Assembly: GCA_004431415.1 (NCBI GenBank)
Contig: QPMI01000562.1
Location: forward strand, 1-64,000
Direction of reading: 5' to 3'
DNA: 64,000 nt
Source: Cyanophora paradoxa CCMP329
Taxonomy: Eukaryota; Plantae; Glaucophyta
The notes under the pieces are model-generated. The model was not told where the DNA came from and did not search any database. It worked only from the letters and a program-made list of their open reading frames with translations. Positions 1-34,032 of the stretch are shown here, piece by piece. Position 1 is the first letter of the stretch, and each line of letters starts with the position of its first letter. Made by a program: the position numbers and the translations under genes.

Positions 1-85
1 CCAGTGGATCCATTAAAACATTTTAAATTGCGTTTAGAACATCCTAAAATAAAATATCCCTTAGAATAGGAACAAGTTAGGAATA

Positions 86-3000
86 ATGCCCCGAATTACC
101 AACAAACTCATAAGGGAGAAGAAATGGGAACTCATGGGATTGCTGGGAACACTTTATGCAGCCCATGAAATTACAGAGGCTGAATATGACCGGAAATAGA
201 TTTAATTGCAAAGGGCAGACCCACTTTAAGCAGATTAACCAGAAAAGCAAATAACCTATATGATAAAATTGAAACCTTGGATGAATTGGATAGGCTTAGG
301 CAAATAGAACCAGATGCAGAAGATGGAACAGCCATGAATGAATTATATCGCTGGCTCACTTACAGAGCCAGAAGGGAAGTTGTTGTAGATGTGATTGAAT
401 TCCTGGATAGAATTGCTACATCCCTTCCAAATCGATTAAAGCAGGGTTTAGATCAATTCAGGGCAATCAAGGTTCGCTTGTCTTTTATCTGCAAGTTCGT
501 TAAAGTGAGCAATCCACAGGTTTGGATATCGAAATACATTTACAGTGATTACTTTGTATTAACCAGGTCGAGAAATATTCGAACTGAGCTGAATAAAGCA
601 GCCCAAATGTGTCAGGAGCAGATGAATGTGGTTGATAGCTATCGCTTAGAAAGAATTGAAATACTCAGAGTGGCTATTATGAGTTATGCTCCAACTGGTG
701 GATGCTTTCTACAAACCCCAGAGTGGATTGCTAGGAAGAGAGCCACAGTAAATATTCGAAATATTGATGATTCCTGCTTCGAAAATGCAATTTTGGCATA
801 TATTCACAGAAAAGCGATAAACTCCCATAAGAGGAATGAGCTTTCACAATATCGCAAATGGAAATACTCAGCAATCGCTTATAATCCGCTGGCTCTCAAT
901 TTCGATAACATCCCATTCCCTGTTGCCTGTGATGCTGAAATAATTGATAAATTCGAGGCTCAAAATGCAGGCATTAGCATTAATATATTCGGAATCGATG
1001 GAGAGGTTGTTTATCCCCTGCATCAATCCAGTTACCCAGGCAGAAAGCATAAGGTTAATCTCATGCTGATATTTGATGATGAAGGGAATGGTCATTATAT
1101 TACAATCATGTCCCTTTCAAGATTATTGAAAGTAAACCATGAAACATACAATGATCAGAAGTTACACTACTGTGACACATGCTTATCTCGATTCAGGTCT
1201 GAGGCTAAACTCACTGCTCATGTGGACTCAAATAGATGCATTGATTGGAGACTCTCAAAGGGATCACACCAAAACCTGAGACCACCATAGAGTTTGGACT
1301 GAAAAACCTCAGGAAAACTGTTTGGCTTCCTGTTGTGGTTTACTGCAAGATTGAACATAGAAGCATCCCCATTGATGCATCAAAATCTAAGAGGGAAGTC
1401 TCAGCAGTCAACCTGAGAGTAGTCACTGGGGCAGATGTTCAGGAGTTTCGATTTGAGGGTCAGGATCCAATGGGAGGTCTCTTTGAATGCTTGGAGTCCA
1501 AAGCAAGAGAACTAATCGATTTCCTGTTTACCAACATTCCTATGAATGAACTCACAGATGAGCAGAAAGCAATTTACAGAGCTACCAAACACTGTTACCT
1601 TTGCAGTGAGAGGTTCACTAAGGAGAACTTCAAATGCAGGGATCATGATCACCACACAGGTCATTACATTGCACCTGCATGCAGAAACTGCAATCTCCAT
1701 AGGAGAATCTCAAAGCAAACAAAAGTAGCAGTGGTTGTTGACCAAATGGATGACTGTGGGACATTCATTTTCAGAAAAATAGCAGGCATGGGTGATAAAA
1801 AGCGAATCGAAATCCTTTCGAAAAACTTTGATCAATACCTTTCATTGCAATGGGGTCTTTACAAGTTCATTGATGCAAGTAATTTTATGGAATTTGGGGC
1901 TGCTGATGTAGATGAGTTAATGGACAAATTCCAAGCCTTCAGAAGGCTTTCACACTCAGTATATGGATTGGACCCAGTTCATTATGTATCTGCACCTGGG
2001 TTATCTTGGGATGCTATGCTTAGGACCACCAAGGCAAAAATAGAGCTTATAAGTGATGTAGAGCAATACGAATTTGTTGAGAGGGGAATCAGGGGTGGCT
2101 TTGCAACAATGCCTTGTAGGTATGCTGAGGCTGATGGTGAGAACTCCCATATAATGCTGTTTGATGCTAACAACTTGTATGGCTACTGTTTGAGTCAGCC
2201 AATTCCAGTTGGTGATTTTAGATGGGAGACCGAATTCAACCCACAAGATAACAGATCCAGTTTCCTGGAAGTTGATCTGGAATACCCAATAAGGCTATAT
2301 CTAGACCACAGTGATTTCCCCCTAATTATTAACAAGAAAATAGTAGAATATGCGGAATTATCACAATATCAAAAGAGCCTGTTGGATCTTTCAGGAGAAG
2401 AGCTTGATAAGACCCCTAAGCTAACTGCAACCTTTGGTTCTGTGGCAAACTATGTGATTTCTGAGCCTCTTCTGCAATATCTGTTGGACAAAGGTGTGAA
2501 ATTAAAGAAAATTCACAGGGTCCTCTCATTTACTGTGGCTCCTGTAATGAAACCCTACATTGAGCTGAATACTGAGATGAGAAGGAAAGCAGTGAATAAA
2601 TTCGAGGCTGATTTCTATAAACTCATGAATAACTCAATCTATGGGAAATGCATTGAATCTTGCAGAGGTAGATCTGTGGTTAAGATTGCAAACAGTGAGA
2701 AACTGTTTATGAAATATGCAGCTTCCCCATTGGTGAAATCAACAAGTCCCATAAACGAAAAAGCAGTTGCCTTTGAGTTTTACACAAAGCATGTGAAACT
2801 AGATAAGCCTGTTGCAATTGGGGCTTATGTTCTGGATGCAGCCAAACTGCATAACTACAAGTTCTTCTATGATACTGTAAGGTCCCAATGGACAAAAGCA
2901 AAGTTACTATTCCATGATACTGACTCCTTTTGTCTATATATCGAATCTAAGACCCTACAAAAAGATATAGAGAATATATCTTATGCCTTGGACCTAGGGG

Positions 3001-3329
3001 GATCTAACAGAATGACCCCAGGTAAATACAAAAATGAGATGCCAGGTTCTGCTATATTGGAATATGTGGGTCTGAGAGCCAAAGTTTACAGTTTCAGAAC
3101 TGCTGAGATTGAGAGAAGTAAGCTCTCTGGGACTTCAACTGAGGAACTCCAATTTAATGATTTTAAGCAGTGTTTATTTGCAGGTATAAGCAAGACTGTG
3201 ACTGCCAAGCAGAAGAGAAGGGCAGATCACACAATAATAGACACTGTGAGTAGAAGGGTTGCCCTAAACTGCTTTGATGCAAAGAGATACATCTTACCAG
3301 ATGGTATTAATTCTGTTCCTTTTAATTAA
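86..3329 (+). pseudogene. Protein-primed family B DNA polymerase, copy A, split by two 1-nt deletions (~193, ~1,262)
   Basis: ATG at 86 gives MPRITNKLIREKKWELMG, matching the copy B N-terminus. Motifs DANNLYG, KLMNNSIYGK and HDTDS are present. Both breaks are single-base losses in short runs (gaccgg(g)aa; ggga(a)tc) and may be consensus errors. Confidence 0.85.
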
Positions 3330-3332
3330 GAG

Positions 3333-4718
3333 ATGCCAGCAACTGGAAGAATAGTTAGGAGAACCACTGAGCAACTACAAGGTAACCTACTGCCTATCAC
3401 AGTTCCCAAGGAGGAAAAGGGAGAATCTCGAATTGTAAAAAAGTCAGAGATGAAAGAGCTTGTCCCAGTAGAGATCCCAGTTGCTATTGCAGTGAAAGAA
3501 ACCAGCAAGATTGCCAAGAGATTCTATGATGTGAGAACTGGTTACAAAGGGCTTCAAGCTATGAGGGCTGAGTTACCTGATGAATCCTATAAGCAGTTGC
3601 AAGAGTTCTATAAAAAACAAGAAGTTGTTCAGATCAATGCACCTGCTATATCTAGGAAGAGAGATCCCATGGTCCCAATTAGGCAACCCCTTGATACCTA
3701 TGTGATTGATTTGCTCTTTTTCCCAGCTTATAAGAAACAAAACAATGGCTATGATACCTTTATGACTGCAATGGAATCTACACTGAGAACTGGGTATATC
3801 ATACCTATAAGGGATAAATCAGCTCTCACTACATTAGCTGCATTTAAACAGCTTGAGATGAGAGTGGCAAGACCCATAGTAAAGGTTCAATCAGATGCTG
3901 GAAGTGAATTCCAAAATCGAATATTCCAGGAGTATTTATCTAGTAAATTCATAGAACACCAAGTGAGTGGAACTGCTGACCACAGAAGCCAAGGTCGAAT
4001 TGAAGCCTTTAACAAGCAGATTAAGAGACTGATCACAAACTACTGCATAGCCAATAACACAGCTAGATTCTTTGATGTGTTAGGTGATATTGAGTATAAT
4101 TACAATTATACAGTCCACTCAGCTACTAAGATGAAGCCAGGCGAAACTACAGAGGAGAATTATAGGTATATAGTGGGATTAGAAGATGAGAGATTCAAGA
4201 AATCAATAGCTTACCTTGATACCATGCAGCCTGGCATGTTTGTTAGAGTGAAAGTTGAGAAAAACCCCTTTGCTAAACAGGGTAACAATTGGTCTAGGAT
4301 GGTTTACACTGTTGATAGTAGAGAAGGCTTTAAGTTTAAGCTAAGGAGTCCCACTGGTGAGATCATAGATAACAGGTTTGCTTTCCATGAGCTGTTGCCT
4401 GTGAATGCAGTGGAGTATCTGGAGACCCCTACAGTGGATGCCTTAGAGCAAGCCAAGGAGGAAGCCAGGGTTGATGCTGCTATAAGGAGAGAGGGCATAG
4501 AAGCTGCTAATGAAGTCCCAGATAAGCCTTTGATAGAGGCTAGGAAGGAGAAGGCTGGGAAAGTTAGCAGGGAACTCAAAAAGCTCACCATAGCAGGGAC
4601 ACAGAAACTTTCAGAAGTGAATAGCCAAAGGTGGTATAATGACTTTCAGACTACTAAGGAGTCATATACAGCCCCTAAACCTCAGAGAACACTAAGAGAA
4701 AGGACCAAAACTAGCTAG
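3333..4718 (+). CDS. rve/DDE integrase (Polinton type), copy A
   Basis: YVIDLLFFP ... VQSDAGSEF ... QGRIEAFNKQIK ... YNYTVHSATKMKP; about 6 aa differences from copy B. Confidence 0.93.
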   Translation: MPATGRIVRRTTEQLQGNLLPITVPKEEKGESRIVKKSEMKELVPVEIPVAIAVKETSKIAKRFYDVRTGYKGLQAMRAELPDESYKQLQEFYKKQEVVQINAPAISRKRDPMVPIRQPLDTYVIDLLFFPAYKKQNNGYDTFMTAMESTLRTGYIIPIRDKSALTTLAAFKQLEMRVARPIVKVQSDAGSEFQNRIFQEYLSSKFIEHQVSGTADHRSQGRIEAFNKQIKRLITNYCIANNTARFFDVLGDIEYNYNYTVHSATKMKPGETTEENYRYIVGLEDERFKKSIAYLDTMQPGMFVRVKVEKNPFAKQGNNWSRMVYTVDSREGFKFKLRSPTGEIIDNRFAFHELLPVNAVEYLETPTVDALEQAKEEARVDAAIRREGIEAANEVPDKPLIEARKEKAGKVSRELKKLTIAGTQKLSEVNSQRWYNDFQTTKESYTAPKPQRTLRERTKTS

Positions 4719-5205
4719 TTTGCTAGCCGAAAACTCGTTTTTTGAAATATATGTATGTGTGATATACATATATGCATATGATATACACGTCAACTTGTAG
4801 ATCTTTTCAAGCGCTTCACAACGCTATGCAGAACGTTGCGAGTGGACAATCTGGTGATGAGATACAAGCGTTTGAAGATGCCGATTATCGATTTTTCGAG
4901 ATTTCGGAATGATGCATCATAATGATGTAATAATGATGTATCATAAACATATAACATATATATATCGCCGTGATCGTCATGATCTCCCGAGTTCGATGGT
5001 GTGTCATATATATCATATACATTTGCATCGTCATTATGACATCATTTCGTAAAATTACACGTCCGTCATCGTCTTTTTCCGCAGCGAACAGATAAGTGAA
5101 CAGTTAAGGAGACAACTATTGTAATAGTGGACTGCAACAACAATTGAAAACAAGATCTGTGGGAAAGCTATTGAAAGACAATGAAGCAAATTGCGAACAA
5201 TTAAG

Positions 5206-5284
5206 TGAACAGTTAAGTGGACACCTGTTGGGAGTAGGCAGTGTCTACTCGTTTATCGTGAAACGGTGTCCACTTAACTGTTCA
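5206..5284. repeat. 20-bp inverted repeat TGAACAGTTAAGTGGACACC (copy A; same structure at ~7,716-7,793 in B)
   Basis: Arms at 5,206-5,225 and 5,265-5,284, with a GAGTAG/CTACTC mini-stem in the loop. Confidence 0.9.
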
Positions 5285-5512
5285 TTTAACTGTTGACGAA
5301 AACCCAAGCATTATGACATCATATCATTAAACCCCATACAAAACACTAAAATGCATGTATCTCTTCACCAACTCATCGCCTGACAAAACCAAAAACAGAT
5401 TCGGAATCCTCTTGACAAGACCTGCGTGACGATGTAAGTATCATAGGCTCAATAAATCATATGTTTAAAGGCATCTCCCCTTGATTCCCCCTATTATATT
5501 ATATTTATATTT

Positions 5513-5950
5513 AAGTGGACTCAAGGTTGACTCATATTAATCGTAAAAGTAGTAAAAGTATATGGATTTTGTTACGAATTCAATGCAAGGGTTGACTAAG
5601 TGGGTTGAGTTGACTCAAATTTCACAGGAAATATTTGGGACCTAAAGTTTTCTAAAAAGGATTTCAAAAAATGTGTCAACTCCCCCCACTTAGTCAACCC
5701 TGACCATAAACAGTAAGGATTTGAGCTAACATGTATCACAAAGTGAACATATTGAGTCCACTTAGAAGATCCACTTTTGAAATCCAAGTTGATTTTGCTT
5801 GAAATTTCAAAGTTGATCTAAAAGTGAGTCCACCCTGATTGATTATGGTAACAAAGTTGACTAAGTTGACTAAGTTGAGTCATATTAAGAAATTCAAGGA
5901 GACTAAGAGTTCAAAATGTTAATGAAAAGTGAGTCAACTTAGACCACTTA
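5513..5950. repeat. Cluster of GT(T/G)GACT iteron-like motifs in both orientations
   Basis: aagtggactc, ggttgactc, gggttgactaagtggg...cccacttagtcaaccc, aagttgactaagttgactaagttgag, gagtcaactt. Confidence 0.75.
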
Positions 5951-6001
5951 TGGTAACAAATTTAAATATTTAATTGATTTAATCGGAAAAGAACATGATT
6001 T

Positions 6002-6224
6002 AATCGAATTTATTGATATAATTCCGATTAGATTCATTTAGGATTCAATTAAGATCAATCGAAGTTATTCATATAATTCCGATTAACTACAATTAAGATA
6101 CAATATCGATTAATCGAGTTTATCGATATAACATCGATTAAATTAATTGAAATGCATATAAAAATATGAAAATTCATGTGAAAATTCAAATACATTAATC
6201 GATTTTATTGATATAACATCGAAT
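6002..6224 (+). repeat. Four degenerate ~29-bp direct repeats at the end of copy A
   Basis: aatcgaatttattgatataattccgatta-like units start at ~6,002, 6,057, 6,112 and 6,197. Confidence 0.75.
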
Positions 6225-6638
6225 CACACATATGAATATTCATATTTTAATCCTGAGGCGGAAGGGGGGTCTGCGCTTGTTTTTTCGATGAGTGTCTCGG
6301 AGCCGCCGACGACGCGCTCCGATTGGCGGCCTCGCCTGCCCGCGAGGCGGCGGCGATCCCCCGCTCGCGCCGCGGCTCGTTTGCGAAGGCGGTAGCGCCG
6401 ATCATTTCCGCTCTGACGCACCGCCGTTCGAGCCGCGTGTCCGCCGCATCGGCCAGCGAGAGCGAGGCCCTCGTGCCCGCTGGCGATCGCGTGCACGTGC
6501 CTTACTACGAACTCTAGGCGCCGCGGCGCTGCCTCCAGATCCGAGGCTCGGATTTTAGATAGCACTACACTAGATTGCTTCAAACTTTGAATTTCATGAT
6601 ACTTCGAATTCCAAAAATGCGTATTGTTATGTTTTAGA

Positions 6639-6644
6639 GAGACT
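6639..6644 (+). repeat. Left target-site duplication GAGACT
   Basis: Identical to 34,027-34,032, and both copies abut the TIR ends. Confidence 0.95.
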
Positions 6645-7523
6645 ACACATAGTAAAATGCGGAGTTTTAACCCTCGGCTTATCTTAATTGATTTTGTTCA
6701 TATATCTCGTATATTCTATTTCAATCAATCGATAATCTGTGTATATCTTATCGAATATTCAATTATTTCGATTATTTTGTATTCTTTTCGATATTTTATC
6801 GTAAATTTCTCTTATTTTCCGATTAGTCTTACTGATTCTATCGATAATCTGTATAAAATTCCGAATAATATAACTGAATCTCAATTAGATCTTGCCTCTG
6901 GTTAAAACTCCGCATTTTACTATGTGTGATTGGTCTAAAAGTTAATTGATTTAATCGATATTATATTCATGTACTTTCTCGATTAAATTTAATTAAATTT
7001 AATTCATTTAATCGGAAACATATCGCTTAACTCGATTAAGATCCATATTAGATTCATTTGTTTAATAAAACAAATCGATCTCTTATTGAATTCAATCGTA
7101 ATTATACATGAAATTGATATGTTTTTCTCATGTTTTAATGAGTCTAAGGGGGTCCCTTAAGAATTTAATGAATAATTGGGTGTCACAGGTGTCACAGGTC
7201 CATCCCATCGAAAGGGAAAATCACTCTTTATAGGGCTTGAGCTGGGATAGACCTGTGACACCTGTGACACATACCATATTCAGTAAGGACCTCATATATT
7301 GTTAAAATCTCAGTGTTAGTTGGTGTAGTTGATTCAAAAAATGCATTTATACTCTGATTCATTGTTATTTCCTGTGAAATTTGAGTCAACTCAACCCACT
7401 TAGTCAACCCTTGCATTGAATTCGTAACAAAATCCATATACTATTACTACTTTTACGATTAATATGAGTCAACCTTGAGTCCACTTTAATATAAATATAA
7501 TATAATAGGGGGAATCAAGGGGA
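6645..7523 (+). repeat. Left TIR (879 bp)
   Basis: Reverse complement of 33,147-34,026. The only difference I noticed is a G5/G6 run at ~7,150. Confidence 0.95.
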
Positions 7524-8282
7524 GATGCTTATAAACATATGAATTATTGAGCCTATGATACTTACATCGTCAGGCAGGCCTCGTTAAGAGGATTCCTAAT
7601 CTGTTTTTGGTTTTGTCACATGATGAGTTGGTGAAGAGATACATGCATTTTAGTGTTTTGTATGTGGTTTAATGATATGATGTCATAATGCATGGGTTTT
7701 CGTCAACAGTTAAATGAACAGTTAAGTGGACACCGTTTCACGATAAACGAGTAGACACTGCCTACTCCCAACAGGTGTCCACTTAACTGTTCACTTAATT
7801 GTTCGCAATTTGCTTCATTGTCTTTCAATAGCTTTCCCGCATATCTTGTTTTCAATTGTTGTTGCAGTACACTATTACAATAGTTGTCTCGTTAACTGTT
7901 CACTTATCTGTTCGCTGCGGAAAAAAGACGATGACGGACGTGTTATGTTACGAAATGATGTCATAATGACGATGCATATGTATATGATATATATGACACA
8001 CCATCGAACTCGGGAGATCATGACGATCACGGCGATATATATATGTTATGTGTTTATGATACATCATTATTACATCATTATGATGCATCATTCCGAAATC
8101 TCGAAAAATCGATAATCGGCATCTTCAAACGCTTGTATCTCATCACCAGATTATCAAATCGCAACGTTCTGCATATCGCTGTGAAGCGCTTGAAAAGATC
8201 TACAAGACAATGTGTATATCATATGCATATATGTATATCAGTCATACATATATTTGGAAAAAACGAGTTTTCGGCTAGCAAA

Positions 8283-9668
8283 CTAGCTAGTTTTGGTCCT
8301 CTCTCTTAGTGTTCTTTGAGGTTTAGGGGCTGTATATGACTCCTTAGTAGTCTGAAAGTCACTATACCATCTCTGGCTATTCACTTCTGAAAGTTTCTGT
8401 GTGCCTGCTATGGTGAGCTTTTTGAGTTCCCTATTAACTTTCCCAGCCTTCTCCTTCCTAGCCTCTATCAAAGGCTTATCTGGGACTTCATTAGCAGCTT
8501 CTATGCCTTCTCTCCTTATAGCAGCATCAACCCTAGCTTCCTCTTTAGCTTGCTCTAAGGCATCTACTGTAGGGGTTTCCAGATACTCAACTGCATTCAC
8601 AGGCAACAGCTCATGGAAAGCAAACCTGTTATCTATGATCTCTCCAGTGGGACTCTTTAGCTTAAACTTAAAGCCTTCCCTACTATCAACAGTGTAAACC
8701 ATCCTAGACCAATTGTTACCCTGTTTAGCAAAGGGGTTCTTCTCTACTTTCACTCTAACAAACATGCCAGGCTGCATGGTATCAAGATAAGCTATTGATT
8801 TCTTGAATCTTTCATCTTCTAATCCTACTATATACCTATAATGCTCCTCTGTAGTTTCACCTGGCTTCATCTTAGTAGCTGAGTGAACTGTATTATTGTA
8901 ATTAAACTCAATATCACCCAACACATCAAAGAATCTAGCTGTGTTATTAGCTATGCAGTAGTTTGTGATCAATCTCTTAATCTGCTTGTTAAAGGCTTCA
9001 ATTCGACCTTGGCTCCTATGGTCTGCAGTTCCACTCACTTGGTGTTCTATGAATTTACTAGATAAATACTCCTGGAATATTCGATTTTGGAATTCACTTC
9101 CAGCATCTGATTGAACCTTTACTATGGGTCTTGCCACTCTCATCTCAAGCTGTTTAAATGCAGCTAATGTAGTGAGAGCTGATTTATCCCTTATAGGTAT
9201 GATATACCCAGTTCTCAGTGTTGATTCCATTGCAGTCATAAAGGTATCATAGCCATTGTTTTGTTTCTTATAAGCTGGGAAAAAGAGCAAATCAATCACA
9301 TAGGTATCAAGGGGTTGCCTTATTGGGACCATGGGATCTCTCTTCCTAGATATAGCAGGTGCATTGATCTGAACTACCTCTTGCTTTTTATAGAACTCTT
9401 GCAACTGCTTATAGGATTCATCTGGTAACTCAGCCCTCATAGCTTGAAGCCCTTTGTAACCAGTTCTCACATCATAGAATCTCTTGGCAATCTTGCTAGT
9501 TTCTTTCACTGCAATAGCAACTGGGATCTCTACTGGGACAAGCTCTTTCATCTCAGACTTTTTGACAATTCGAGATTCCCCTTTTTCCTCCTTTGGAACT
9601 GTGATAGGCAGTAGGTTACCTTGCAGTTGCTCAGTGGTTCTCCTTACTATTCTTCCAGTTGCTGGCAT
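8283..9668 (-). CDS. rve/DDE integrase (Polinton type), copy B
   Basis: YVID, QSDAGSEF and RIEAFN catalytic motifs in an intact 461-aa ORF. Confidence 0.93.
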   Translation of the reverse strand: MPATGRIVRRTTEQLQGNLLPITVPKEEKGESRIVKKSEMKELVPVEIPVAIAVKETSKIAKRFYDVRTGYKGLQAMRAELPDESYKQLQEFYKKQEVVQINAPAISRKRDPMVPIRQPLDTYVIDLLFFPAYKKQNNGYDTFMTAMESTLRTGYIIPIRDKSALTTLAAFKQLEMRVARPIVKVQSDAGSEFQNRIFQEYLSSKFIEHQVSGTADHRSQGRIEAFNKQIKRLITNYCIANNTARFFDVLGDIEFNYNNTVHSATKMKPGETTEEHYRYIVGLEDERFKKSIAYLDTMQPGMFVRVKVEKNPFAKQGNNWSRMVYTVDSREGFKFKLKSPTGEIIDNRFAFHELLPVNAVEYLETPTVDALEQAKEEARVDAAIRREGIEAANEVPDKPLIEARKEKAGKVNRELKKLTIAGTQKLSEVNSQRWYSDFQTTKESYTAPKPQRTLRERTKTS

Positions 9669-9671
9669 CTC

Positions 9672-12600
9672 TTAATTAAAAGGAACAGAATTAATACCAT
9701 CTGGTAAGATGTATCTCTTTGCATCAAAGCAGTTTAGGGCAACCCTTCTACTCACAGTATCTATTATTGTGTGATCTGCCCTTCTTTTCTGCTTTGCAGT
9801 CACAGTCTTGCTGATACCTGCAAATAAACACTCCTTAAAATCATTGAATTGGAGTTCCTCAGTGGAAGTCCCAGATAGCTTACTTCTCTCAATCTCAGCA
9901 GTTCTGAAACTGTAAACTTTGGCTCTCAGACCTACATACTCCAATATAGCAGAACCTGGCATCTCATTTTTGTATTTACCTGGGGTCATTCTGTTAGATC
10001 CCCCTAAGTCCAGATTAAAGGATATATTCTCTAGGTCTTTTTGGAGGGTCTGAGATTCGATATATAGACAAAAGGAATCAGTATCATGGAATAGTAACTT
10101 TGCTTTTGCCCACTGGGACCTTACAGTATCATAGAAGAACTTGTAGTTATGCAGTTTGGCAGTATCCAAAACATAAGCCCCAATAGCAACAGGTTTATCT
10201 AGCTTCACATGCTTTGTGTAAAACTCAAAGGCAACTGCTTTTTCGTTTATGGGACTTGTTGATTTCACCAATGGGGAAGCTGCATATTTCATAAACAGTT
10301 TCTCACTGTTTGCAATCTTAACCACAGATCTACCTCTGCAAGATTCAATGCATTTCCCATAGATTGAGTTATTCATGAGTTTATAGAAATCAGCCTCGAA
10401 TTTATTCACTGCTTTCCTTCTCATCTCAGTATTCAGCTCAATGTAGGGTTTCATTACAGGAGCCACAGTAAATGATAGGACCCTGTGAACCTTCTTTAGT
10501 TTCACCCCTTTGTCCAACAGATACTGTAGAAGAGGCTCAGAAATCACATAGTTTGTCACAGAACCAAAGGTTGCAGTTAGCTTAGGGGTCTTATCAAGCT
10601 CTTCTCCTGAGAGATCTAATAGGCTCTTTTGATATTGTGATAATTCTGCATATTCTACTATTTTCTTGTTAATAATTAGGGGGAAATCACTGTGGTCTAG
10701 ATATAGCCTAATTGGGTAATCCAGATCAACTTCCAGGAAACTGGATCTGTTATCTTGTGGGTTGAATTCGGTCTCCCATCTAAAATCACCAACTGGGATT
10801 GGCTGACTCAAACAGTAGCCATACAAGTTGTTAGCATCAAACAGCATTATATGGGAGTTCTCACCATCAGCCTCAGCATACCTACAAGGCATTGTTGCAA
10901 AGCCACCCCTGATTCCCCTCTCAACAAATTCGTATTGCTCTACATCACTTATTAGCTCTATTTTTGCCTTGGTGGTCCTTAACATAGCATCCCAAGATAA
11001 CCCAGGGGCAGATACATAATGAACTGGGTCAAGTCCATATACTGAGTGTGAAAGCCTTCTAAAAGCCTGGAATTTGTTCATTAACTCATCTACATCAGCA
11101 GCTCCAAAATCCATGAAGTTACTTGCATCAATGAACTTGTAAAGACCCCATTGCAATGAAAGGTATTGATCAAAGTTTTTCGAAAGGATTTCGATTCGCT
11201 TTTTATCACCCATGCCTGCTATTTTTCTGAAAATGAATGTCCCACAGTCATCCATTTGGTCAACAACTACTGCAACTTTGGTTTGCTTTGAGATTCTCCT
11301 ATGGAGATTGCAGTTTCTGCATGCAGGAGCAATATAATGACCTGTGTGGTGATCATGATCCCTGCATTTGAAGTTCTCCTTAGTGAACCTCTCACTGCAA
11401 AGGTAACAGTGTTTGGTAGCTCTGTAAATTGCTTTCTGCTCATCTGTGAGTTCATTCATAGGAATGTTGGTAAACAGGAAATCGATTAGTTCTCTTGCTT
11501 TGGACTCCAAGCATTCAAAGAGACCTCCCATTGGATCCTGACCCTCAAATCGAAACTCCTGAACATCTGCCCCAGTGACTACTCTCAGGTTGACTGCTGA
11601 GACTTCCCTCTTAGATTTTGATGCATCAATGGGGATGCTTCTATGTTCAATCTTGCAGTAAACCACAACAGGAAGCCAAACAGTTTTCCTGAGGTTTTTC
11701 AGTCCAAACTCTATGGTGGTCTCAGGTTTTGGTGTGATTCCCTTTGAGAGTCTCCAATCAATGCATCTATTTGAGTCCACATGAGCAGTGAGTTTAGCCT
11801 CAGACCTGAATCGAGATAAGCATGTATCACAGTAGTGTAACTTTTGATCCTTGGTTTTATCAAGGGCAACTCTGAGAAGTCTTGAAAGGGACATGATTGT
11901 AATATAGTGACCATTCCCTTCATCATCATGAATGAGCATTAGATTAATCTTTTGCTTTCTACCTGGGTTACTGGATTGATGTAGGGGATATATAACATCT
12001 CGATCCATTCCAAATATGTTTATGCTGATGCCTGCATTTTGAGATTCGAATTTATCAATTATTTCAGCATCACAGGCAACAGGGAATGGGATGTTATCGA
12101 AATTGAGTGCCAGAGGATTGTATGTAGTTGGTGAGTATTTCCATTTGCGATATTGTGTAAGCTCACTTCTCTTGTGGGAATTCACATCTTTCCTATGGAT
12201 CCATGCCAAAATGGCATTTTCGAAGCAAGAATCATCAATATTTCGAATATTCACTGTGGCTCTCTTGGCTGCAATTGACTCAGGTGTTTTAACATAGCAA
12301 CCACCGGTTGGGGCATAACTCATAATAGCAACTCTAAGCATTTCGATTCTCTCCAATCGATAGCTATCAACAACATTCATCTGTTCCTGACACATTTGGG
12401 CTGCTTTATTCAGCTCAGTTCGAATATTTCTCGATTTGGTTAATACAAAATAATCGCTGTAAATGTATTTCGATATCCAAACCTGTGGATTGCTGACTTT
12501 TACGAACTTGCAGATAAACGATAAGCGAACTTTGATTGCCCTGAATTGATCTAGACTGTCTCTTAAACGTTTTGGTAGAGAGGTTGCAATTCTATCTAAA

Positions 12601-12917
12601 TATTCAATCACATCAACAACAACTTCCCTTCTGGCTCTGTAAGTGAGCCAGCGATATAATTCATTCATTGCTGTACCATCTTCTGCCTCTGGTTCTATTT
12701 GCCTCAGGCGATCGAGTTCATCAAGAGTTTCAACTTTATCATAGAGGTTATTGGCTTTTCTGGTTAATTTCGCTAAAGTGGGTCTGCCCCTTGAAATAAA
12801 TCTGATTTCCCGGTCATATTCAGCCTCTGTAATTTCATGGGCTGCATACAGTGTTCCCAGTAATCCCATGAGTTCCCATTTCTTCTCTCTAATGAGTCTG
12901 TTGCTAATTCGGGGCAT
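9672..12917 (-). CDS. Protein-primed family B DNA polymerase (terminal-protein/vOTU-like N-terminus, endonuclease VII-like Zn finger, degenerate exonuclease)
   Basis: NIDDSCF...GHY, CYLC...RDHDHHTG...CRNCN, YGLDPVHY, GIRGG, DANNLYG, KLMNNSIYGK, HDTDS, LRAKVY. Confidence 0.93.
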   Translation of the reverse strand: MPRISNRLIREKKWELMGLLGTLYAAHEITEAEYDREIRFISRGRPTLAKLTRKANNLYDKVETLDELDRLRQIEPEAEDGTAMNELYRWLTYRARREVVVDVIEYLDRIATSLPKRLRDSLDQFRAIKVRLSFICKFVKVSNPQVWISKYIYSDYFVLTKSRNIRTELNKAAQMCQEQMNVVDSYRLERIEMLRVAIMSYAPTGGCYVKTPESIAAKRATVNIRNIDDSCFENAILAWIHRKDVNSHKRSELTQYRKWKYSPTTYNPLALNFDNIPFPVACDAEIIDKFESQNAGISINIFGMDRDVIYPLHQSSNPGRKQKINLMLIHDDEGNGHYITIMSLSRLLRVALDKTKDQKLHYCDTCLSRFRSEAKLTAHVDSNRCIDWRLSKGITPKPETTIEFGLKNLRKTVWLPVVVYCKIEHRSIPIDASKSKREVSAVNLRVVTGADVQEFRFEGQDPMGGLFECLESKARELIDFLFTNIPMNELTDEQKAIYRATKHCYLCSERFTKENFKCRDHDHHTGHYIAPACRNCNLHRRISKQTKVAVVVDQMDDCGTFIFRKIAGMGDKKRIEILSKNFDQYLSLQWGLYKFIDASNFMDFGAADVDELMNKFQAFRRLSHSVYGLDPVHYVSAPGLSWDAMLRTTKAKIELISDVEQYEFVERGIRGGFATMPCRYAEADGENSHIMLFDANNLYGYCLSQPIPVGDFRWETEFNPQDNRSSFLEVDLDYPIRLYLDHSDFPLIINKKIVEYAELSQYQKSLLDLSGEELDKTPKLTATFGSVTNYVISEPLLQYLLDKGVKLKKVHRVLSFTVAPVMKPYIELNTEMRRKAVNKFEADFYKLMNNSIYGKCIESCRGRSVVKIANSEKLFMKYAASPLVKSTSPINEKAVAFEFYTKHVKLDKPVAIGAYVLDTAKLHNYKFFYDTVRSQWAKAKLLFHDTDSFCLYIESQTLQKDLENISFNLDLGGSNRMTPGKYKNEMPGSAILEYVGLRAKVYSFRTAEIERSKLSGTSTEELQFNDFKECLFAGISKTVTAKQKRRADHTIIDTVSRRVALNCFDAKRYILPDGINSVPFN

Positions 12918-12974
12918 AGTTCCTAACTTGTTCCTACTAAAAGGGGAGGTTTTAAATGGGGATATTCCGAACGC

Positions 12975-14370: not shown

Positions 14371-16698
14371 ATGAACGCCAAACAGACTAAATCGCTCAAA
14401 TCGCTCGCTAACTGGCTCAGATCTGATGAGGATCTAGCCAAAAACATGATTATCCCAGTGAAACCTGACAGCAAAGACCCTGTTTTCAAGCATAAGGGAG
14501 GTGCTTGGTCCTGGGAAAAGTATGAAGAAGCGCTGGCAACTAATCAGTATGTATCTTGGGGCATTCTGCTCTCAGACAACATGATGGTTATTGACTTTGA
14601 TGATGAGGAGAACTTTGAGAAATTCCGAGATATGTTTCCTGATGACTTTGATGCCAATCAACCCATGGCAAAAACTAAAAAAGGCTATCATGTCTACTTT
14701 AAACGTCCTGAGGAGTTCACTAAACTCAAAATCACCGATAAGGCTCCAGGCTTTAAAGGCTTTGAAAAGGTTGACCTGAAAACAATCACTGGAACTGGAA
14801 CTTCTGGATTAATTAATGTTTGTCCCAGTGTCAACAAGACCTGGGTAATTGCTCCATGGGATGATACCTGTGATTTCAATGAGCCTACTGATGAGTTTAA
14901 AAAGTGGATTGCAGAGAACTATATCTATAAGAGTGAGTATACTGCTAATGCTACCTCACATGATGCATTGGAAAAGAGTATTCTTAAAGAGCTGGTGGAT
15001 ATGGGCTTTATGCATCCCAATATAATCTCTCAAACTGAACTGGGCTTTAACTTTGATGCTGCTAATAAGGGACTTAATTGCCCATGCTGCAATGGGTCCC
15101 ATGAATCGAATAACTGGTATGTTATGAAAGCCAAAGGAGAAGATAAAAAGTATATTGTGTCCAGCTACAGTGGCAATTGCAAAAAACGATTTATCTTCAT
15201 TGGAATGCAATCTGATATCTTCAATCTCATTGATAAGTCCGCTGGTTCTGGAGGCGCTCATTATGATGTCAGTCTTGTGTGCAAAGAGGTACTACAACAT
15301 ACTTGGAGATACTCCAAAAAGTCATGGTTCAAACTCAATACTGATACTGGGATTTGGGAGCATGATGACACAAACCAAAAGATTTACCTAGACATAAGTT
15401 GCCTTGTTGTCCCTCAATACCTTGGCAGGGCTGTGCATTATAGCCAAAGAGCTTTGAAGGATGAAGAGAATAGAACAGCTTTCGAAGAGAAATCGAAAAC
15501 ATTAATTTCTATTGCCAAAAATCTTAAACAATCAGGATATCGCAAATCCCTTCTGACTGATCTGCTCCCTCTGCTGAATGATGATGAATTCTATGAAAAG
15601 ATTGATACAGTTCCATATGTAATTGGATTCGATAATGGTGTATTTGATCTGACAACTATGACTTTCAGAAAGGGGAAACTGGAAGATATGGTGAGCAAGA
15701 GTGTGGGTTATGATTATACTGAGAATGTAGACCCCAAGAAAGTAGACCATCTCAATCAGATTTATAGAGAGATTGTAGATGATCCAGCAGAGCGAAACTA
15801 CCTTCTGGCATCTATTGCAATTGCCCTCAGTGGATCAACAAAATCACAGAAGTTCTACATGTGGACTGGTGCTGGGGCAAATGGTAAATCACTTGTTCAG
15901 GAATACTGCAAACAGATTTCAGGGGCTTATTATAGCCCTCTCGAAATATCCTATTGGACCAAACCTAAAAAGAACTCATCAGATGCTACTCCTGAACTTG
16001 CCAAACTCCTTGGAAAGCGACTTGTATTCAGTAATGAGGCTGAAGATGGTGATAAACTGCAGATCTCCAAAATTAAGGAGGTCACAGGTGGAAATGAAAT
16101 GACTGTGAGAGCCTTGTTCAAAGACCCAGTAATCCTCACTCCAATGTTCCAGGTTTACATTACAACTAATGACAATTTGACTATAAATAAACCAGACTTT
16201 GCAATTCAAAGAAGACTTTCATACCAGAGATTCAATAATATATTCAGAGAGAAGCCTGAAGCTGGTCAGAAGAAAGCTGACCCAACACTGTTCACACTTC
16301 TACACAATGATGATGAGTATAAGATGGCTCACATGAAGATATTACTGGATATGTGGAAGAACAAAGAGGTTGAAGAGATCTTAAGAAATCCCCCTCAATC
16401 GATTATTGAACAGGGAATAAACTTTATAGCTGAAAATGATAAGATTGGTGAATGGCTTAGGGATAATTTCGAAGTTACCCATAATGCAAACGACTTTGTT
16501 TCGAGTGATATCATTTACAAATCATACAGAAGTGTCGATGATAAAGTTGAATGTGTTTCTGTGATGAAGAGAGTAAGGGAAATCTTCAATGTGAAATCAG
16601 AGGTTAAACGAATTCAGGGAACCAGAGCAAGGGGCTACATTGGACTTCGAAAGATAACAAGGGTTCAAGAAGACAATGGAGAGGATGTTGAATATTAA
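14371..16698 (+). CDS. Prim-Pol primase fused to D5-like SF3 helicase
   Basis: VIDFDD and KTKKGYHVYF (AEP/Prim-Pol motifs), CPCC..H..C Zn motif, IGFDNGVFDL, Walker A GAGANGKS, Walker B LVFSNE, IKEVTGG. Confidence 0.93.
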   Translation: MNAKQTKSLKSLANWLRSDEDLAKNMIIPVKPDSKDPVFKHKGGAWSWEKYEEALATNQYVSWGILLSDNMMVIDFDDEENFEKFRDMFPDDFDANQPMAKTKKGYHVYFKRPEEFTKLKITDKAPGFKGFEKVDLKTITGTGTSGLINVCPSVNKTWVIAPWDDTCDFNEPTDEFKKWIAENYIYKSEYTANATSHDALEKSILKELVDMGFMHPNIISQTELGFNFDAANKGLNCPCCNGSHESNNWYVMKAKGEDKKYIVSSYSGNCKKRFIFIGMQSDIFNLIDKSAGSGGAHYDVSLVCKEVLQHTWRYSKKSWFKLNTDTGIWEHDDTNQKIYLDISCLVVPQYLGRAVHYSQRALKDEENRTAFEEKSKTLISIAKNLKQSGYRKSLLTDLLPLLNDDEFYEKIDTVPYVIGFDNGVFDLTTMTFRKGKLEDMVSKSVGYDYTENVDPKKVDHLNQIYREIVDDPAERNYLLASIAIALSGSTKSQKFYMWTGAGANGKSLVQEYCKQISGAYYSPLEISYWTKPKKNSSDATPELAKLLGKRLVFSNEAEDGDKLQISKIKEVTGGNEMTVRALFKDPVILTPMFQVYITTNDNLTINKPDFAIQRRLSYQRFNNIFREKPEAGQKKADPTLFTLLHNDDEYKMAHMKILLDMWKNKEVEEILRNPPQSIIEQGINFIAENDKIGEWLRDNFEVTHNANDFVSSDIIYKSYRSVDDKVECVSVMKRVREIFNVKSEVKRIQGTRARGYIGLRKITRVQEDNGEDVEY

Positions 16699-16759
16699 AC
16701 AAAACGATTTATGATTGAAATGTATATGTATTTTTTATAGCCTTACTGGAAATGGTGTT

Positions 16760-16851
16760 GTTCACAGGTGTCACAGGTCCATCCCATCTAGGGGGCTATA
16801 AAAAGAAAAATGACCAGGGGACGATAAAAACCTGTGAACACCTGTGACACC
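16760..16851. repeat. Internal copy of the TIR TGTCACAGG inverted repeat (candidate origin)
   Basis: tcacaggtgtcacaggtccatcccatc is identical at 16,762-16,788 and 7,183-7,209; the opposing arm acctgtgaacacctgtgacacc is at 16,830-16,851. Confidence 0.85.
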
Positions 16852-18522: not shown

Positions 18523-19305
18523 TTATAAACCGCGTTTATATCGCATCAATTTATTGCTATGGACTTGGCTTTTCACTTCTTTTGGGGCTTCCTCTTTCTC
18601 TGGTGGTTTCAGTTCATCTTCTTTCTTTTTGGGCTTCCTGTGGAAGCGAGGGAATGGGAAATCTTTCACAAGGTCCGCTTTATCAACAAAGTATTTAACT
18701 GAGTAGCCAGCAGAGGACCAAACGATATACTGATAGGAGTGAACATACTCTTCAAACATCTTGTAGAAATCCTCTTTATTTCGCATTATATTGTATTCTT
18801 CCTCTATGGCTTCAAGTTCTTTGCGATTAGCAGCACTTAGGAAAACAGCATAATCAGAATTAACTCGAATAGTGGAAGAGACTTTTCTGAGTTTCTGTGT
18901 AATGCAGATAATGGATATTTTCGAATGGCGACCTCTGGAATACAAGGATCCGATTATTTTATCCCTTGTGAGATCGACTATCTCATTATCAATTAAATCA
19001 TCTAAAACAACACACATGTGGTTCACAGGTTCACCTTTTTCGATTTTCTCCTGCCTTTCATCCAAAAGCTTTGAAATGTAACCAGCATCCCATTTACCAA
19101 GTTCTACTGTTGCAACCTCTCTCCAGAAATGATTAAAGCTGGTCCCACTCACAACTAGGACAACATCAATAACTTTGGCATCATGTAATTGCTTTAACCA
19201 ATACTTTACACATTCGCTTTTTCCCGTACAACTTTTGCCTATAAAAATGGCTCTGAAAACACCTTTTATCATTTCAGAAACATTAAACTCTTCTAAATCT
19301 TGCAT
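18523..19305 (-). CDS. A32-like DNA packaging ATPase
   Basis: Walker A GKSCTGKS, Walker B VVLDD, RGRHSKISIICITQ, TIRVNSDY. Confidence 0.93.
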   Translation of the reverse strand: MQDLEEFNVSEMIKGVFRAIFIGKSCTGKSECVKYWLKQLHDAKVIDVVLVVSGTSFNHFWREVATVELGKWDAGYISKLLDERQEKIEKGEPVNHMCVVLDDLIDNEIVDLTRDKIIGSLYSRGRHSKISIICITQKLRKVSSTIRVNSDYAVFLSAANRKELEAIEEEYNIMRNKEDFYKMFEEYVHSYQYIVWSSAGYSVKYFVDKADLVKDFPFPRFHRKPKKKEDELKPPEKEEAPKEVKSQVHSNKLMRYKRGL

Positions 19306-19364: not shown

Positions 19365-20730
19365 CTATAAATTGATTCTACGAACACCTGAACCGTCTAT
19401 AATGAGGAAACTATGCATTAAAGCGCGAACTTGAACATTGATTGTCTTATCTGTGGGCATGTAGAGTGTGAGGAATGAAGATGAGGAATTTGTCAGGTCA
19501 ACAAATCCACTTTGAGCAATATTTCGAATCGCCTTCTCTCCATCAATGCAGAAACTTAAACCTGAAAGGACATATTTATCTGCAACCTTATCCATGTTAG
19601 AGCATTTGAATGCATCAGCAATTAGCTCAGCACCTTTGAGTAGGGAAATTGGCTCAGTGGCATAAAGTCGTTGTCCATTAATTTCAACAGTGAAAGTAAT
19701 ATCTTTGGAGTTGGCATAGGTCTTAAGAACACTGTGGGAGCCATTGGATTTGTCAACAGTCTCATAATCACGAACTGAAACAAGCAGAGCATAGACAAGA
19801 CCTGAGATTTGAGAGAGGTTAATTCGATTGGGCTGGGCATTGCCCTTGGCAGGGAAAGCAATGGCATCTACAAATCCAATATCAAGGGAGGGAATAGCCA
19901 TGCCAGTAGTCTTTACTTTTTCAATTACAGTAGCGAAAAGCTCATCAGAAACATTAATAGCATGCATGTAAAGGCGAGGAGAAGTAATTGAAATAGCAGG
20001 GGTTGTTGCACCAAGACTGAAAGTGGTGATGTTTTGACCAACATGGGCAAGTGTAGCATTAGCAGTATCACCAAGACCATCATCTTCTGTCTTATCAGCA
20101 GCTGTCCCACCAACAACAGGGAGAGAGCGACCACCATAGGAAGTTTCAACATAACCCTTTCCAGCATCCTTAAACCAAACAGTAACAACCATTTCACCAG
20201 ATAAAGCACCAAGGGAAGATAGTGATTTAGCCAAGGCACTGGGATTTCAACGAAAAATGAGCCACCAAGTCGGTTGGTTCCATGAGCAGGGATTCCATGA
20301 ACCATGCCCATTGAGCGTTTCTTTTTAGCTAGTTGATCCTCCGAATAATAGACCAGGGGAAATGAGCAAGGAAATCAGAAGGAATGTGGTAGGTGTAAGA
20401 TCCATAGGTAATTTCAAGTCGCTGAACTAAAGCACCAACTGGGCGAGTGTATCCATTGCGAACTAGATCTTCACCAGCAAAAGTGATTTCTGGTAGGTCG
20501 AAAGCAAGTTCGAGTTTTCCACAGAAATTGTAGCGAGGTAGCTTGAAGGAAATGCGATTTCCAACATTATTCTCAAAAGTATTGCTGGGATTCACAACAA
20601 CTAGAACTGGCTTAGACTTGGATTCGAGTCCAAGCATAAGGGAGTTATCCAGGAAAAAGGCTTTCGCCTCCTCTGGGGTTGTTAGGGCTTCTTTCAGCGA
20701 AAGTCTTTGAAGAGTGGAAGTGATATCCAT
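19365..20730 (-). CDS. Major capsid protein (double jelly-roll, ~455 aa), two 1-nt frameshifts in this sequence
   Basis: MDITSTLQ...ISFKLPRY..KLELAFDLP..YTRPVGALVQRLEITYG..FFVEIPVPW..FTVEING..SGFVDLTN. Size, beta-rich composition and position next to ATPase and mCP fit. Breaks at ~20,358 and ~20,231. Confidence 0.8.
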
Positions 20731-24337: not shown

Positions 24338-27300
24338 ATGAGCTTCAATTACCCACCAAATCTAGAAACCATTCAAGATGATAATGCAAGCAGCACCAAG
24401 CATGTGAACTTTGATAATATTAAAGTAAAGGGTTCAGTTTCAATTGACCACAGCTCTGATAATTCATCAAAGACTCAATCAAGGGAGCATGCTTTATCTG
24501 TGAATCAAACCGATCCAGATAAAGAGGATGTCAGTGTAGCCTTTAGTTTGGGTAATGTGAAAGCAAACCAAGTGGCAGAGATCAAAGCAACAAGAAGGAG
24601 ACCTAGGAAACTAAAAACCAGTGGCACTCACCCAGATATACCTTCCAGGTTTGATAGTGGTCGATTGATTTTCAATGTTCAAGATGAGCAGGGCAAACAG
24701 AACACAGCTTTGCGAATTTACAATGAGGGCAGCACTGCAAAAGCTGAGGTCCCCCAAGTATTGCAAGTGGGTCCCATTGCCAATACAAATCAGGTCTCCT
24801 ACACAAATGATGTCTACCCCAAGGATATTACATATGACTTTGCAAGAAATGAGCCTTTTGGTTTCTTTACTCCAAAAGATGTCCATCAAAAAAAGCCATC
24901 AATTACAATCAACAGTAGCCCCAGTCAACCAGTAGCAATCCATTTACATCCTGATTTAGTCGAAATGGATAGGCACCTTTTGCCTTTGTATAGCAATGTG
25001 AAAGACCTTGGAATTAGAACCAGGCAATGGCGAAATATCCATGGCAGCAATGTGTATGCAAATGGGGAGAAACTTGTGAGTGAGAAAACTCTAAGGGAAA
25101 TAATTGAGCATTATGGTCCCAATGGACCAACAGTCCCATTCCCTATTCCATTTCCAAATGGACCTCCCGATTTAACACCAAAGAAACAGCCTGGAAGAGA
25201 ATACACAGCAACTGAAGATGTAGCCTTTGGGCAGCATATTGTTAGTTGGGAGCAAGTTCGCAATAAACCTATAATTGAACCCAGAAAGCAAATAGATGAG
25301 CAGTATTTACCTCCTGAAGTCGATATATTAGAGCTTGATGAATATCAATTCGTTCCAGATGAGGAAGAATATTTACCAGATGGTTTTGACCCACAAGAAT
25401 ATGAATATGATCAGTTTGACCCCAATGAGGAGGAGATACTACCAGATGGCTTAGATCCCCAAGAGTTTGAGTATGAGCAGAACTATGAACCTGATGAGGA
25501 GTATTTGCCAGATGGGCATGATCCACCAGCTGTTGACTATGAGCAACCTTATGAACCCCATGAGGAACTATTACCAGATGGATTTCGACCTGAGATCTGG
25601 GAGTTCTTTCCTGATTATGAACAAATTAATAATAAACCTGCAAAGTATCCCCCAGAGGATCACAATCATGACTGGGATGAGATCTTAGGCAAACCACAGA
25701 AATACCCACCAGAAGACCACAGGCATGATTGGGGTGATATTGATGGGATTCCAGATAAGTTTGCAGCAAGCAACCATGAACACACTTGGGATGAGATTAA
25801 TGACCAACCAGAGTTTGCAAAAGTGGAGCCTCTTGCTACTCTGGGAGTTTCTCTTTACCAGACTTGCAATGTCCCTGAAAGGATCTTTTTGAATGAACAC
25901 TATGTACATGTGAATGGGACACTTGCGAATTCAGCTATGAGAGGACCACTTCATATTAGGACATTACCAGGCTCTTATAATCCACCACCTGAACCAGGAG
26001 CAACCATACCAAATATCTTTGTGTCAAGCTACATGGAGGCTGACATTCCCACAGATACATTCAGAGTCCCAACAGACCCAGCAACCTACCAAAATTACAA
26101 CTCTGCTATACAGGTTCATGTAGCAGATGTAAGCAGTCTAGATGGATCAAGACCAATGATAGTTTTCAGTCGAGATAAATATTCCTATATTCCCATAGTG
26201 GGAACTGCAAATGATAACTATGGAAGGGCAGAGCTTGCATGGATTAAAACAAACTATGGTGGGGTTCTGGAAGCCAATCAGAGGATGGCAGCAAAAAACA
26301 TACACAATGAAAATATTTCGAGAGTGGTCACAGAGGATTATCTAGAAGATCAAGGATATATTGATGAAGGTGAACTCACAAATATTCTTTCTCTTTTTGT
26401 GATCAAAAATGACACAAACCTTACAGTCACTTCCAATATCTACACCAGTAACCTTTATACAAGTAACATTTTCACAAGTAACCTATGGGCAAGTAACATT
26501 TGGACAAGAAAACTATGGGCAGATGATATTTACACAAGTAATCTTACAGTGTATCGAAATATAACAATTGGAACACAAAACACTATACAAATACTTTATA
26601 GACCTTACTACGCTGTTACAACTGTCATTGATCCAGCCCCAATTATTCCAAATTGTATATTTGCATGGAAAGCATCAGGTCAACATGGTCAGTTGATTTA
26701 TTACCAAGGTAAGATATATAACAGAGTTACTACACAGATACCATATCTAACAAATTATTCGAATTGGGAAACTGTTTATTATTATTTGAATGCAACCCTA
26801 AACAATCAAATTTCGATTGGGAAAGAATTAAACATGGCTTATAGGAATAGTGTTTCAATAGATTGGTCATTAGGTCTTACATTATTCTTTATAGGTAGGA
26901 TCAATACAACAAACCCTTCTTATATGTTGAGTATAAGGGATAGTTCTTATCAAAATTGGATTGGATATGGTTGTAAAAATCAAAAGTTTGGTGTTTCACT
27001 ACAAATTCAAAACGATATAGAAAATGCAACTCCTCCATTATTCGATGCATCATATATTTATAATTCGTGGAATTATTGGGATTTCACTGTTTCCTCAGAG
27101 CAAATTGTCGTAGGAATGGGTGGTATTGATATTGGAACATCATCGGGTGATTTTCTTCCACCTTCTAATTTTGCATCATTTGGTTCTTCTGTTGCTAATG
27201 GAGATCTTGCCGAAATTATCGTTTTCAATCGTGCGTTATCTATTGAAGAAAAGAACGCGGTTAGATATTATATACAATTATTGTATGGATTTCCAAATAC

Positions 27301-33146: not shown

Positions 33147-34026
33147 TCCCCTTGATTCCCCCTATTATATTATATTTATATTAAAGTGGACTCAAGGTTG
33201 ACTCATATTAATCGTAAAAGTAGTAATAGTATATGGATTTTGTTACGAATTCAATGCAAGGGTTGACTAAGTGGGTTGAGTTGACTCAAATTTCACAGGA
33301 AATAACAATGAATCAGAGTATAAATGCATTTTTTGAATCAACTACACCAACTAACACTGAGATTTTAACAATATATGAGGTCCTTACTGAATATGGTATG
33401 TGTCACAGGTGTCACAGGTCTATCCCAGCTCAAGCCCTATAAAGAGTGATTTTCCCTTTCGATGGGATGGACCTGTGACACCTGTGACACCCAATTATTC
33501 ATTAAATTCTTAAGGGACCCCCCTTAGACTCATTAAAACATGAGAAAAACATATCAATTTCATGTATAATTACGATTGAATTCAATAAGAGATCGATTTG
33601 TTTTATTAAACAAATGAATCTAATATGGATCTTAATCGAGTTAAGCGATATGTTTCCGATTAAATGAATTAAATTTAATTAAATTTAATCGAGAAAGTAC
33701 ATGAATATAATATCGATTAAATCAATTAACTTTTAGACCAATCACACATAGTAAAATGCGGAGTTTTAACCAGAGGCAAGATCTAATTGAGATTCAGTTA
33801 TATTATTCGGAATTTTATACAGATTATCGATAGAATCAGTAAGACTAATCGGAAAATAAGAGAAATTTACGATAAAATATCGAAAAGAATACAAAATAAT
33901 CGAAATAATTGAATATTCGATAAGATATACACAGATTATCGATTGATTGAAATAGAATATACGAGATATATGAACAAAATCAATTAAGATAAGCCGAGGG
34001 TTAAAACTCCGCATTTTACTATGTGT
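33147..34026 (-). repeat. Right TIR (880 bp)
   Basis: Reverse complement of 6,645-7,523. Confidence 0.95.
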
Positions 34027-34032
34027 GAGACT
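34027..34032 (+). repeat. Right target-site duplication GAGACT
   Basis: Identical to 6,639-6,644. Confidence 0.95.

Follow-up and report, generated by a model that had tools for sequence, protein, structure and literature searches.

Introduction

For most groups of Polintons and PLVs, how the copying of the ends starts and finishes has not been demonstrated. Terminal palindromes beside the TSD were described in Halocafeteria seosinensis for virophage subtypes 1, 2, 5, and 6 and for PLV subtype 4, and hairpin priming from these palindromes was proposed there (bioRxiv 10.64898/2026.07.28.741278). The main text does not use the words flip, loop, spacer, or orientation (bioRxiv 10.64898/2026.07.28.741278). 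The element examined here resembles those in Halocafeteria in being rve-integrated and in carrying an inverted repeat inside each TIR, beside the TSD. It differs in that 28-bp arms enclose a 227-base spacer, whereas the Halocafeteria palindrome is 52 nt long and was screened for with a gap limit of 10, and in that it encodes pPolB as well as a primase-helicase of the D5 type, whereas the Halocafeteria palindromes occur mainly with non-pPolB replicases (bioRxiv 10.64898/2026.07.28.741278). With a gap limit of 10, that screen would miss the long-loop form; since small-gap palindrome screens in general miss long-loop fold-backs, such ends may be undercounted.

Fold-back ends are also found in more distant systems. 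In Streptomyces, fold-back repair of 3′ telomere overhangs was reported (PMC5449611). As in the model proposed below, the terminus there can pair, on a 3′ overhang, with a complement lying further inside, and the orientation is fixed. The likeness is an analogy only and homology is not claimed; Streptomyces telomeres are bacterial, have many tight palindromes, and need Tpg and Tap (PMC5449611). Parvovirus hairpins resemble the present unit in that, when extended, they consist of a spacer enclosed by an inverted repeat, and in that their 3′ fold-back can prime; they differ in needing NS1/Rep nicking (not found here), in having long stems with small loops, and in belonging to a single-stranded genome (PMC1185569). 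According to the same source, the parvovirus left end can hold a single orientation through asymmetric resolution (PMC1185569).

Polintons/Mavericks and PLVs share with our element a pPolB with a terminal-protein-like domain, an rve integrase, an ATPase, a capsid protein, long TIRs, and a 6-bp TSD. Our element differs from them in its 5′-ACACAT terminus, in place of the 5′-AG type (AGTAGT in loci L010 and L035), in a shortened linking loop carrying Asp in the Ser column, and in an inner inverted copy of its end. Embedded ITRs were reportedly worked on in adenovirus, and a literature search for that work returned nothing. In the literature searched, no Polinton was described as having a terminal repeat of the long-loop kind, and the supplementary tables of the Halocafeteria study may hold cases. 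What appears to be new here is the long-loop form in a pPolB element; TSD-adjacent terminal palindromes with proposed hairpin priming were already known. The element makes a sharp test system: its 28-bp arms are exact, any inversion would be recorded in its long loop, its polymerase has an altered priming loop, and dozens of copies exist in one culturable-looking host genome.

Results

A Polinton-type element bounded by ACACAT termini

The window, that is, the whole 64-kb stretch of DNA analysed, holds a virus-like element of 27.4 kb at 6645-34026. The element is flanked on both sides by the 6-bp target duplication GAGACT, and its two TIRs differ by a single base within a G run. Its GC content is about 39%, versus 62-80% in the surrounding host DNA, where introns are short and dense; these traits suggest that the host is a microbial eukaryote. 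The main features are as follows.

6639..6644, no strand: left TSD, GAGACT
6645..7523, plus strand: left TIR, 879 bp
8283..9668, minus strand: rve integrase (PF00665, E 2.5e-4, under the curated cut-off)
9672..12917, minus strand: pPolB with an N-terminal terminal-protein-like domain and an EndoVII-like insert (PF03175, E 1.6e-13; PF02945, E 2.5e-4)
14371..16698, plus strand: Prim-Pol and D5-type helicase (PF09250, PF08706, PF19263)
18523..19305, minus strand: A32-type packaging ATPase (PF04665, E 8.9e-12)
19365..20730, minus strand: major capsid protein gene in two frames, each piece matching P0124
33147..34026, minus strand: right TIR, 880 bp
34027..34032, no strand: right TSD, GAGACT

A Pfam scan of 21 proteins recovered pPolB, rve, Prim-Pol/D5 helicase, A32 ATPase, and AdoMet decarboxylase, leaving 11 of the 21 without any family. 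The integrase matched rve ORFs of related loci by BLASTP with E values down to 2e-36; used alone as the query, it retrieved no related loci and three protein homologues. The predicted model of pPolB (pLDDT 84) had phi29 polymerase as its nearest structure. The capsid homologue P0124 scored 0.98 to the Capsid_N/Capsid_NCLDV (double jelly-roll) clusters in a feature search, and the capsid call follows from this homologue and that search; the split of the capsid gene into two frames is either a true lesion or an assembly error. Because its terminus is 5′-ACACAT and not 5′-AG, we did not file this Polinton-type element as a classical Maverick; classical Mavericks have termini of the 5′-AG type.

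The gene content includes several further items. An S-adenosylmethionine decarboxylase gene lies at the right end (32551-32949; PF02675, E 1.7e-11). The region 24338-30166 encodes a fibre-like protein of 1942 aa that has an S74 chaperone domain at its C-terminus; two 280-aa genes that look like paralogues come after it. A TIR motif (that of the 7180-7270 stem-loop) is repeated exactly over 27 bp just 3′ of the primase-helicase gene, at 16741-16805, and is possibly a shared regulatory site or a module boundary.

The terminal 28 bases recur inverted inside each TIR

The first-pass annotation had counted the terminal 28-mer four times and had described a 283-bp unit with 227 inner bp at each end. 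Both the count and the lengths held: exact forward copies stand at 6645 and 33744, exact reverse complements at 6900 and 33999, and no further copy was found in the 64-kb window at up to 8 mismatches.

6645..6672, plus strand: terminal 28-bp arm, left (sequence; junction contig)
6673..6899, no strand: 227-bp spacer, the predicted loop, 26% GC, T-rich on the plus strand
6900..6927, minus strand: inner inverted 28-mer of the left TIR
6928..6931, minus strand: AATC context before the inner arm, common to the variant unit and the sister element described below
33744..33771, plus strand: inner inverted 28-mer of the right TIR
33999..34026, minus strand: terminal 28-bp arm, right

The arms are identical at 28/28 positions, and the outer arm ends flush with the terminal base of the element. 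Past these exact pairs, approximately 20 further bases inward are still partly complementary. A second exact copy within one TIR has a chance expectation of about 3e-14, and the four copies amount to a single independent pair, the TIRs being mirror images. At the left end, the junction of host and element was carried by a 224-nt contig (6448-6671) with 0 differences in 4/4 public runs, and therefore it is no assembly artefact. On its inner side the unit is bordered by CCAATC, versus GAGACT outside, and has no target duplication of its own.

An ORF of 82 codons that extends from one arm to the other (6657-6905) was rejected as a gene: it matches no Pfam family, its frame was open in 51/5000 shuffles and any frame in 164/5000, and the 11 additional bases of the variant unit would shift its frame. 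Both elements in the window have other stem-loops, of 28 to 35 bp, within their TIRs or close to them (7180-7270, 7705-7803, and 5588-5701). Rfam returned four matches, all far under the gathering score and on stem-loops other than the unit.

Predicted folding of a single-stranded end and the proposed fold-back

For 33700-34026, the predicted fold had an energy of -50 kcal/mol and a z-score of -8.0, and 0/100 shuffles were as good; this z-score is no independent evidence, because it follows from the repeat itself. For the strand with its 3′ end at 34026, pairing is predicted between its last 28 bases and 33744-33771, the final base lying flush with the first. The spacer alone folded no better than shuffles (z -1.5). 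As predicted, the fold leaves a paired 3′-OH pointing to the element interior, and the folded end could thus be read as a terminus-like duplex or be extended as a primer. The full 283-bp TIR duplex, however, is far more stable than the local stem (-327.5 vs -26.2 kcal/mol), so, unless one end becomes single-stranded by itself, the stem would arise only as a kinetic form. The local panhandle suggested in the first-pass annotation is supported in part: geometry and energy allow it and end fold-backs in relatives match it, whereas at equilibrium the TIR duplex is far more stable (-327 vs -26 kcal/mol).

We propose a fixed-orientation, telomere-like fold-back at each end of this Polinton-type element, a long-loop variant of the Halocafeteria terminal palindromes, and hold this reading to be about evenly balanced between right and wrong. 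Under it, the 283-bp unit would be the opened, double-stranded form of the fold-back. Once a 3′ end became single-stranded, its last 28 bases would pair with the inner inverted copy, and the stem would offer a terminus-like duplex as a start site for the polymerase and a template for restoring lost end bases, the loop not being inverted. The ends might become single-stranded alone via a displaced strand or an overhang from primase-driven synthesis, the latter being considered because the element encodes a Prim-Pol/D5 protein, and copying between the arms would keep them identical. The fold-back reading is weakened by the far more stable TIR duplex, by the other 28- to 35-bp stem-loops, which make dyads common in these TIRs, by the sister element, which has the inner motif without a predicted fold-back in this copy, and by complete Mavericks that lack such a repeat (below).

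A variant unit bridged in a single orientation

Other copies of the element were sought in Logan contigs of four public runs (X1, X2, X7, and X9). With 31-base words assumed, a contig that stops flush marks many flanks, and one that runs through marks a single context. Rare forms drop out of short-read contigs, and such contigs give no phase for the unit type of the window itself, the most abundant one, which was fragmented in them; its flipped junction would measure about 32 nt and go unlisted.

A 350-nt contig of run X7 (record 20) carried a variant unit of 294 bp, the middle of which is replaced. At 477.7, the depth of this contig is approximately 10 times that of the flank contig (45.5). 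The variant contig aligned to 6645-6742 with 10 differences and to 6846-6931 with 11, with 114 bases instead of 103 in the middle and 52 unlike bases past 6931. The replaced part of the spacer is flanked in the window by a 13-bp direct repeat at 6728 and 6840. The contig ends flush at 6645 and crosses the inner arm; over 31 bases lie to either side of that arm. The inner arm was thus bridged in 1/4 runs, for the variant unit only, in a single orientation and a single inner context. Two further contigs agree and were not counted as bridging: one from X1 (record 5), which also starts flush at 6645, and one from X2 (record 12), which extends two bases past the inner arm.

Because solo or flipped copies would break the contig at the inner arm too, this result argues against such copies of the bridged variant, but not of the window's own type. 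The flip-flop inversion raised in the first-pass annotation is accordingly unsupported, the contig breaking flush only at the terminal side. At least 6 of the 21 differences could be placed among the alignment rows listed, none of them in the arms, and the two arms of the variant are likely identical. Both variant ends still align to the arms, which therefore persist longer than the spacer and the interior of the TIR. A separate 988-nt contig of low depth (X9 record 28) covers 6671-6743 and departs from the unit at 6743, close to the 13-bp direct repeat; it would represent a rearranged or interrupted end, and the variant diverges near the same point.

The sister element and the arms as possible binding sites

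A second Polinton copy occupies 1-6303 in inverted orientation. Its part at 1-5633 is related, in inverted orientation, to 7366-12945; the two are 97% alike over most of the length, the figure being 97% in the integrase and the 3′ part of the polymerase gene and about 87% in the 5′ part. Beyond 5633 it has a different TIR that is only patchily alike. Judged from these identities, the sister element looks like a recombinant, and its polymerase gene is split near 1263. Within the differing TIR lies one feature of interest.

6222..6259, plus strand: inner-arm look-alike (28-mer at 6226-6253, 19/28; with context, 28/38)

The look-alike is preceded by AATC and followed by GAGGC, and its outward orientation is the same as that of the inner arm. 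A match of 19 was reached by 4/600 shuffles. Over a 38-mer window picked after the match was known, the score was 28/38, compared with 25 for the best of 600 shuffles and 22 for the best site in the 25.5-kb element interior. The AATC that precedes the arm is common to three TIR types.

These findings bear on the reading that competes best with the fold-back, namely that the arms are a head-to-head pair of duplex protein-binding sites, for the integrase or an origin-binding polymerase, with strand pairing irrelevant. Transposons usually have repeated end-binding sites, as in the IR/DR Tc1 elements, Tn7, and Mu. The conserved AATC fits such sites, as does the inner motif kept at 19/28 in the sister element without a complementary terminus in this copy, where only about 50 bases separate 6253 from host DNA, the apparent end shows about four complementary bases, and no fold-back is predicted. 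Binding sites, however, would not need identity to the very last base, yet the arms match at 28/28 and partial complementarity continues inward. Moreover, the sister end in the window may be damaged: a deep contig of run X7 stops flush at 6253, and in 4/4 runs the summed depth of sister-type sequence fell past 6253 from 16,531-46,016 to 248-818. Most sister-type copies thus continue differently, and the window's end is possibly atypical. We consider the binding-site reading rather unlikely.

End fold-backs in distant relatives and the arms as a possible relic

We scanned 122 loci with a related pPolB or integrase, several of which were the same contig and most of which lacked true termini. Comparable end fold-backs were found in 3/122 loci (L077, L065, and L066), a count that gives no frequency, since most loci lack true termini; each of the three contributes one end, and the termini are putative. 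In L077, whose gene order is that of the window element, pPolB and rve are followed by 244 bases and then a 132-bp unit, AGTAGT...ACTACT, in which 19 pairs are exact and a one-base shift brings about 29 more. In L065, a 111-bp unit with 27 exact pairs starts with ACACAC at a GC step before a decayed pPolB and has no duplication of its own. In L066, a 249-bp fold-back with imperfect 77-bp arms and a spacer of 95 lies 2 bases from the contig end. All three loci were counted in favour of a fold-back telomere. L010 and L035, the two complete Mavericks whose AGTAGT terminus is clear, had no such repeat (2/2), and downstream of the integrase 14/15 loci examined had no fold-back, most of them lacking a true end.

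Several candidates were rejected. The 217-bp terminal fold-back of L120 is an inverted duplicate of the 3′ part of the polymerase gene and is absent in the relative L122, and the repeats in L013, L023, L035, and L118 are internal. The complete Maverick L035 also contains telomere-like TTAGGG runs within its TIRs (120-180 and 14810-14925).

That the feature is absent from most related loci fits a neutral relic, in which one event of fold-back copying or end capture was spread by TIR homogenisation. Template switching at ends readily yields inverted copies, and such an origin would be easy. In addition, the TIRs of EMALEs are reported to regenerate after truncation. A relic does not account well, however, for arms that persist while the spacer and the interior have diverged or been replaced, or for a motif kept in a TIR type otherwise only patchily alike. 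We therefore regard a relic as improbable.

The terminal-protein domain and the mode of priming

The terminal-protein-like domain of pPolB comprises about residues 78-200 and has an adintovirus match at E 1.4e-7. Residues 75-208 were modelled with a pLDDT of 87. In the structure search, ranks 1-8 were all little-finger domains of Y-family polymerases with middling Z values of 7-9 (for example 1unn_D: Z 8.1, rmsd 3.5, 103 aligned), so that by this model the N-terminal domain would have the terminal-protein fold. Kinship of Polinton terminal proteins to Y-family little-finger domains has been described; in that account the linking residue, Ser or Tyr, sits in the loop that precedes the last strand and has a Gly or Pro close to it. 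The corresponding loop was located by profile alignment.

12360..12374, minus strand: codons 182-186 (VVDSY), loop of the presumed linking Ser (GSGW in relatives)

Ser occupied the presumed linking column in 140/148 alignment rows, mostly as GSGW, and Asp occupied it in both window elements and the nearest relative, P0004. The Asp-bearing loop is shorter, contains no Gly or Pro, and is adjoined by Ser185 and Tyr186, either of which could take over the linkage; that the aligned Ser is the linking residue is presumed from the published description. Across relatives, end fold-backs were not found to be tied to loss of the linking Ser, L065 and L066 keeping it; the altered loop thus gives a hint bearing on the fold-back in this lineage only.

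For the proposed fold-back, the start of synthesis might be protein-primed on the stem, which we find doubtful and yet a serious candidate, or DNA-primed from the paired 3′-OH with one-sided resolution, which appears unlikely. More speculative and decidedly improbable is a Polinton lineage without protein priming, in which the linking serine was lost, the 28-bp fold-back over its 227-base loop primes itself, and the dimer bridge is cut on one side, perhaps by the EndoVII-like insert of the polymerase, with one orientation kept. If protein priming was indeed abandoned, small DNA viruses that are protein-primed and those that are hairpin-primed would have a living intermediate in this lineage.

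Replacement of the presumed linking Ser would also suit a parvovirus-like rolling hairpin with terminal resolution and flip/flop of the 227-bp spacer, as would the shape of the unit, which is that of an extended hairpin, and the inward-facing paired 3′ end of the fold. The contig bridging the variant, however, has one orientation at about 10 times the flank depth (477.7 vs 45.5), an opposite-strand joint at the unit is absent among the 2 joints listed, and no HUH/Rep family occurred among the 21 proteins scanned with Pfam, 11 of which matched no family at all; such a mechanism is very improbable. Least credible is a MITE-like mini-element moved alone by the integrase, as the first-pass annotation had allowed: the element's own end, a likely integrase substrate, stands at both limits of the unit, yet no target duplication surrounds the unit alone, no solo copy with its own TSD exists in the window or for the bridged variant, the variant's inner arm has one shared context instead of many host flanks, and the motif had 0 matches in viral contigs and 0 in metagenome contigs.

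The insertion site and its surroundings

The insertion site (6540-6644 and 34033-34230) is an AT-rich patch in GC-rich host DNA, 340 bp from another element. A resemblance between the left flank and the inner context of the unit (a 7-base run) was rejected, the match between insertion site and TIR not being significant (best E 0.018). A 1134-nt contig (records 3, 10, 18, and 26) at flank depth shares 6304-6477 with the window and then continues leftwards into 960 other bases; it is probably another allele without the sister element. Further into the host DNA, the gene at 41700-46400 has very short, GC-rich introns and resembles a voltage-gated cation channel.
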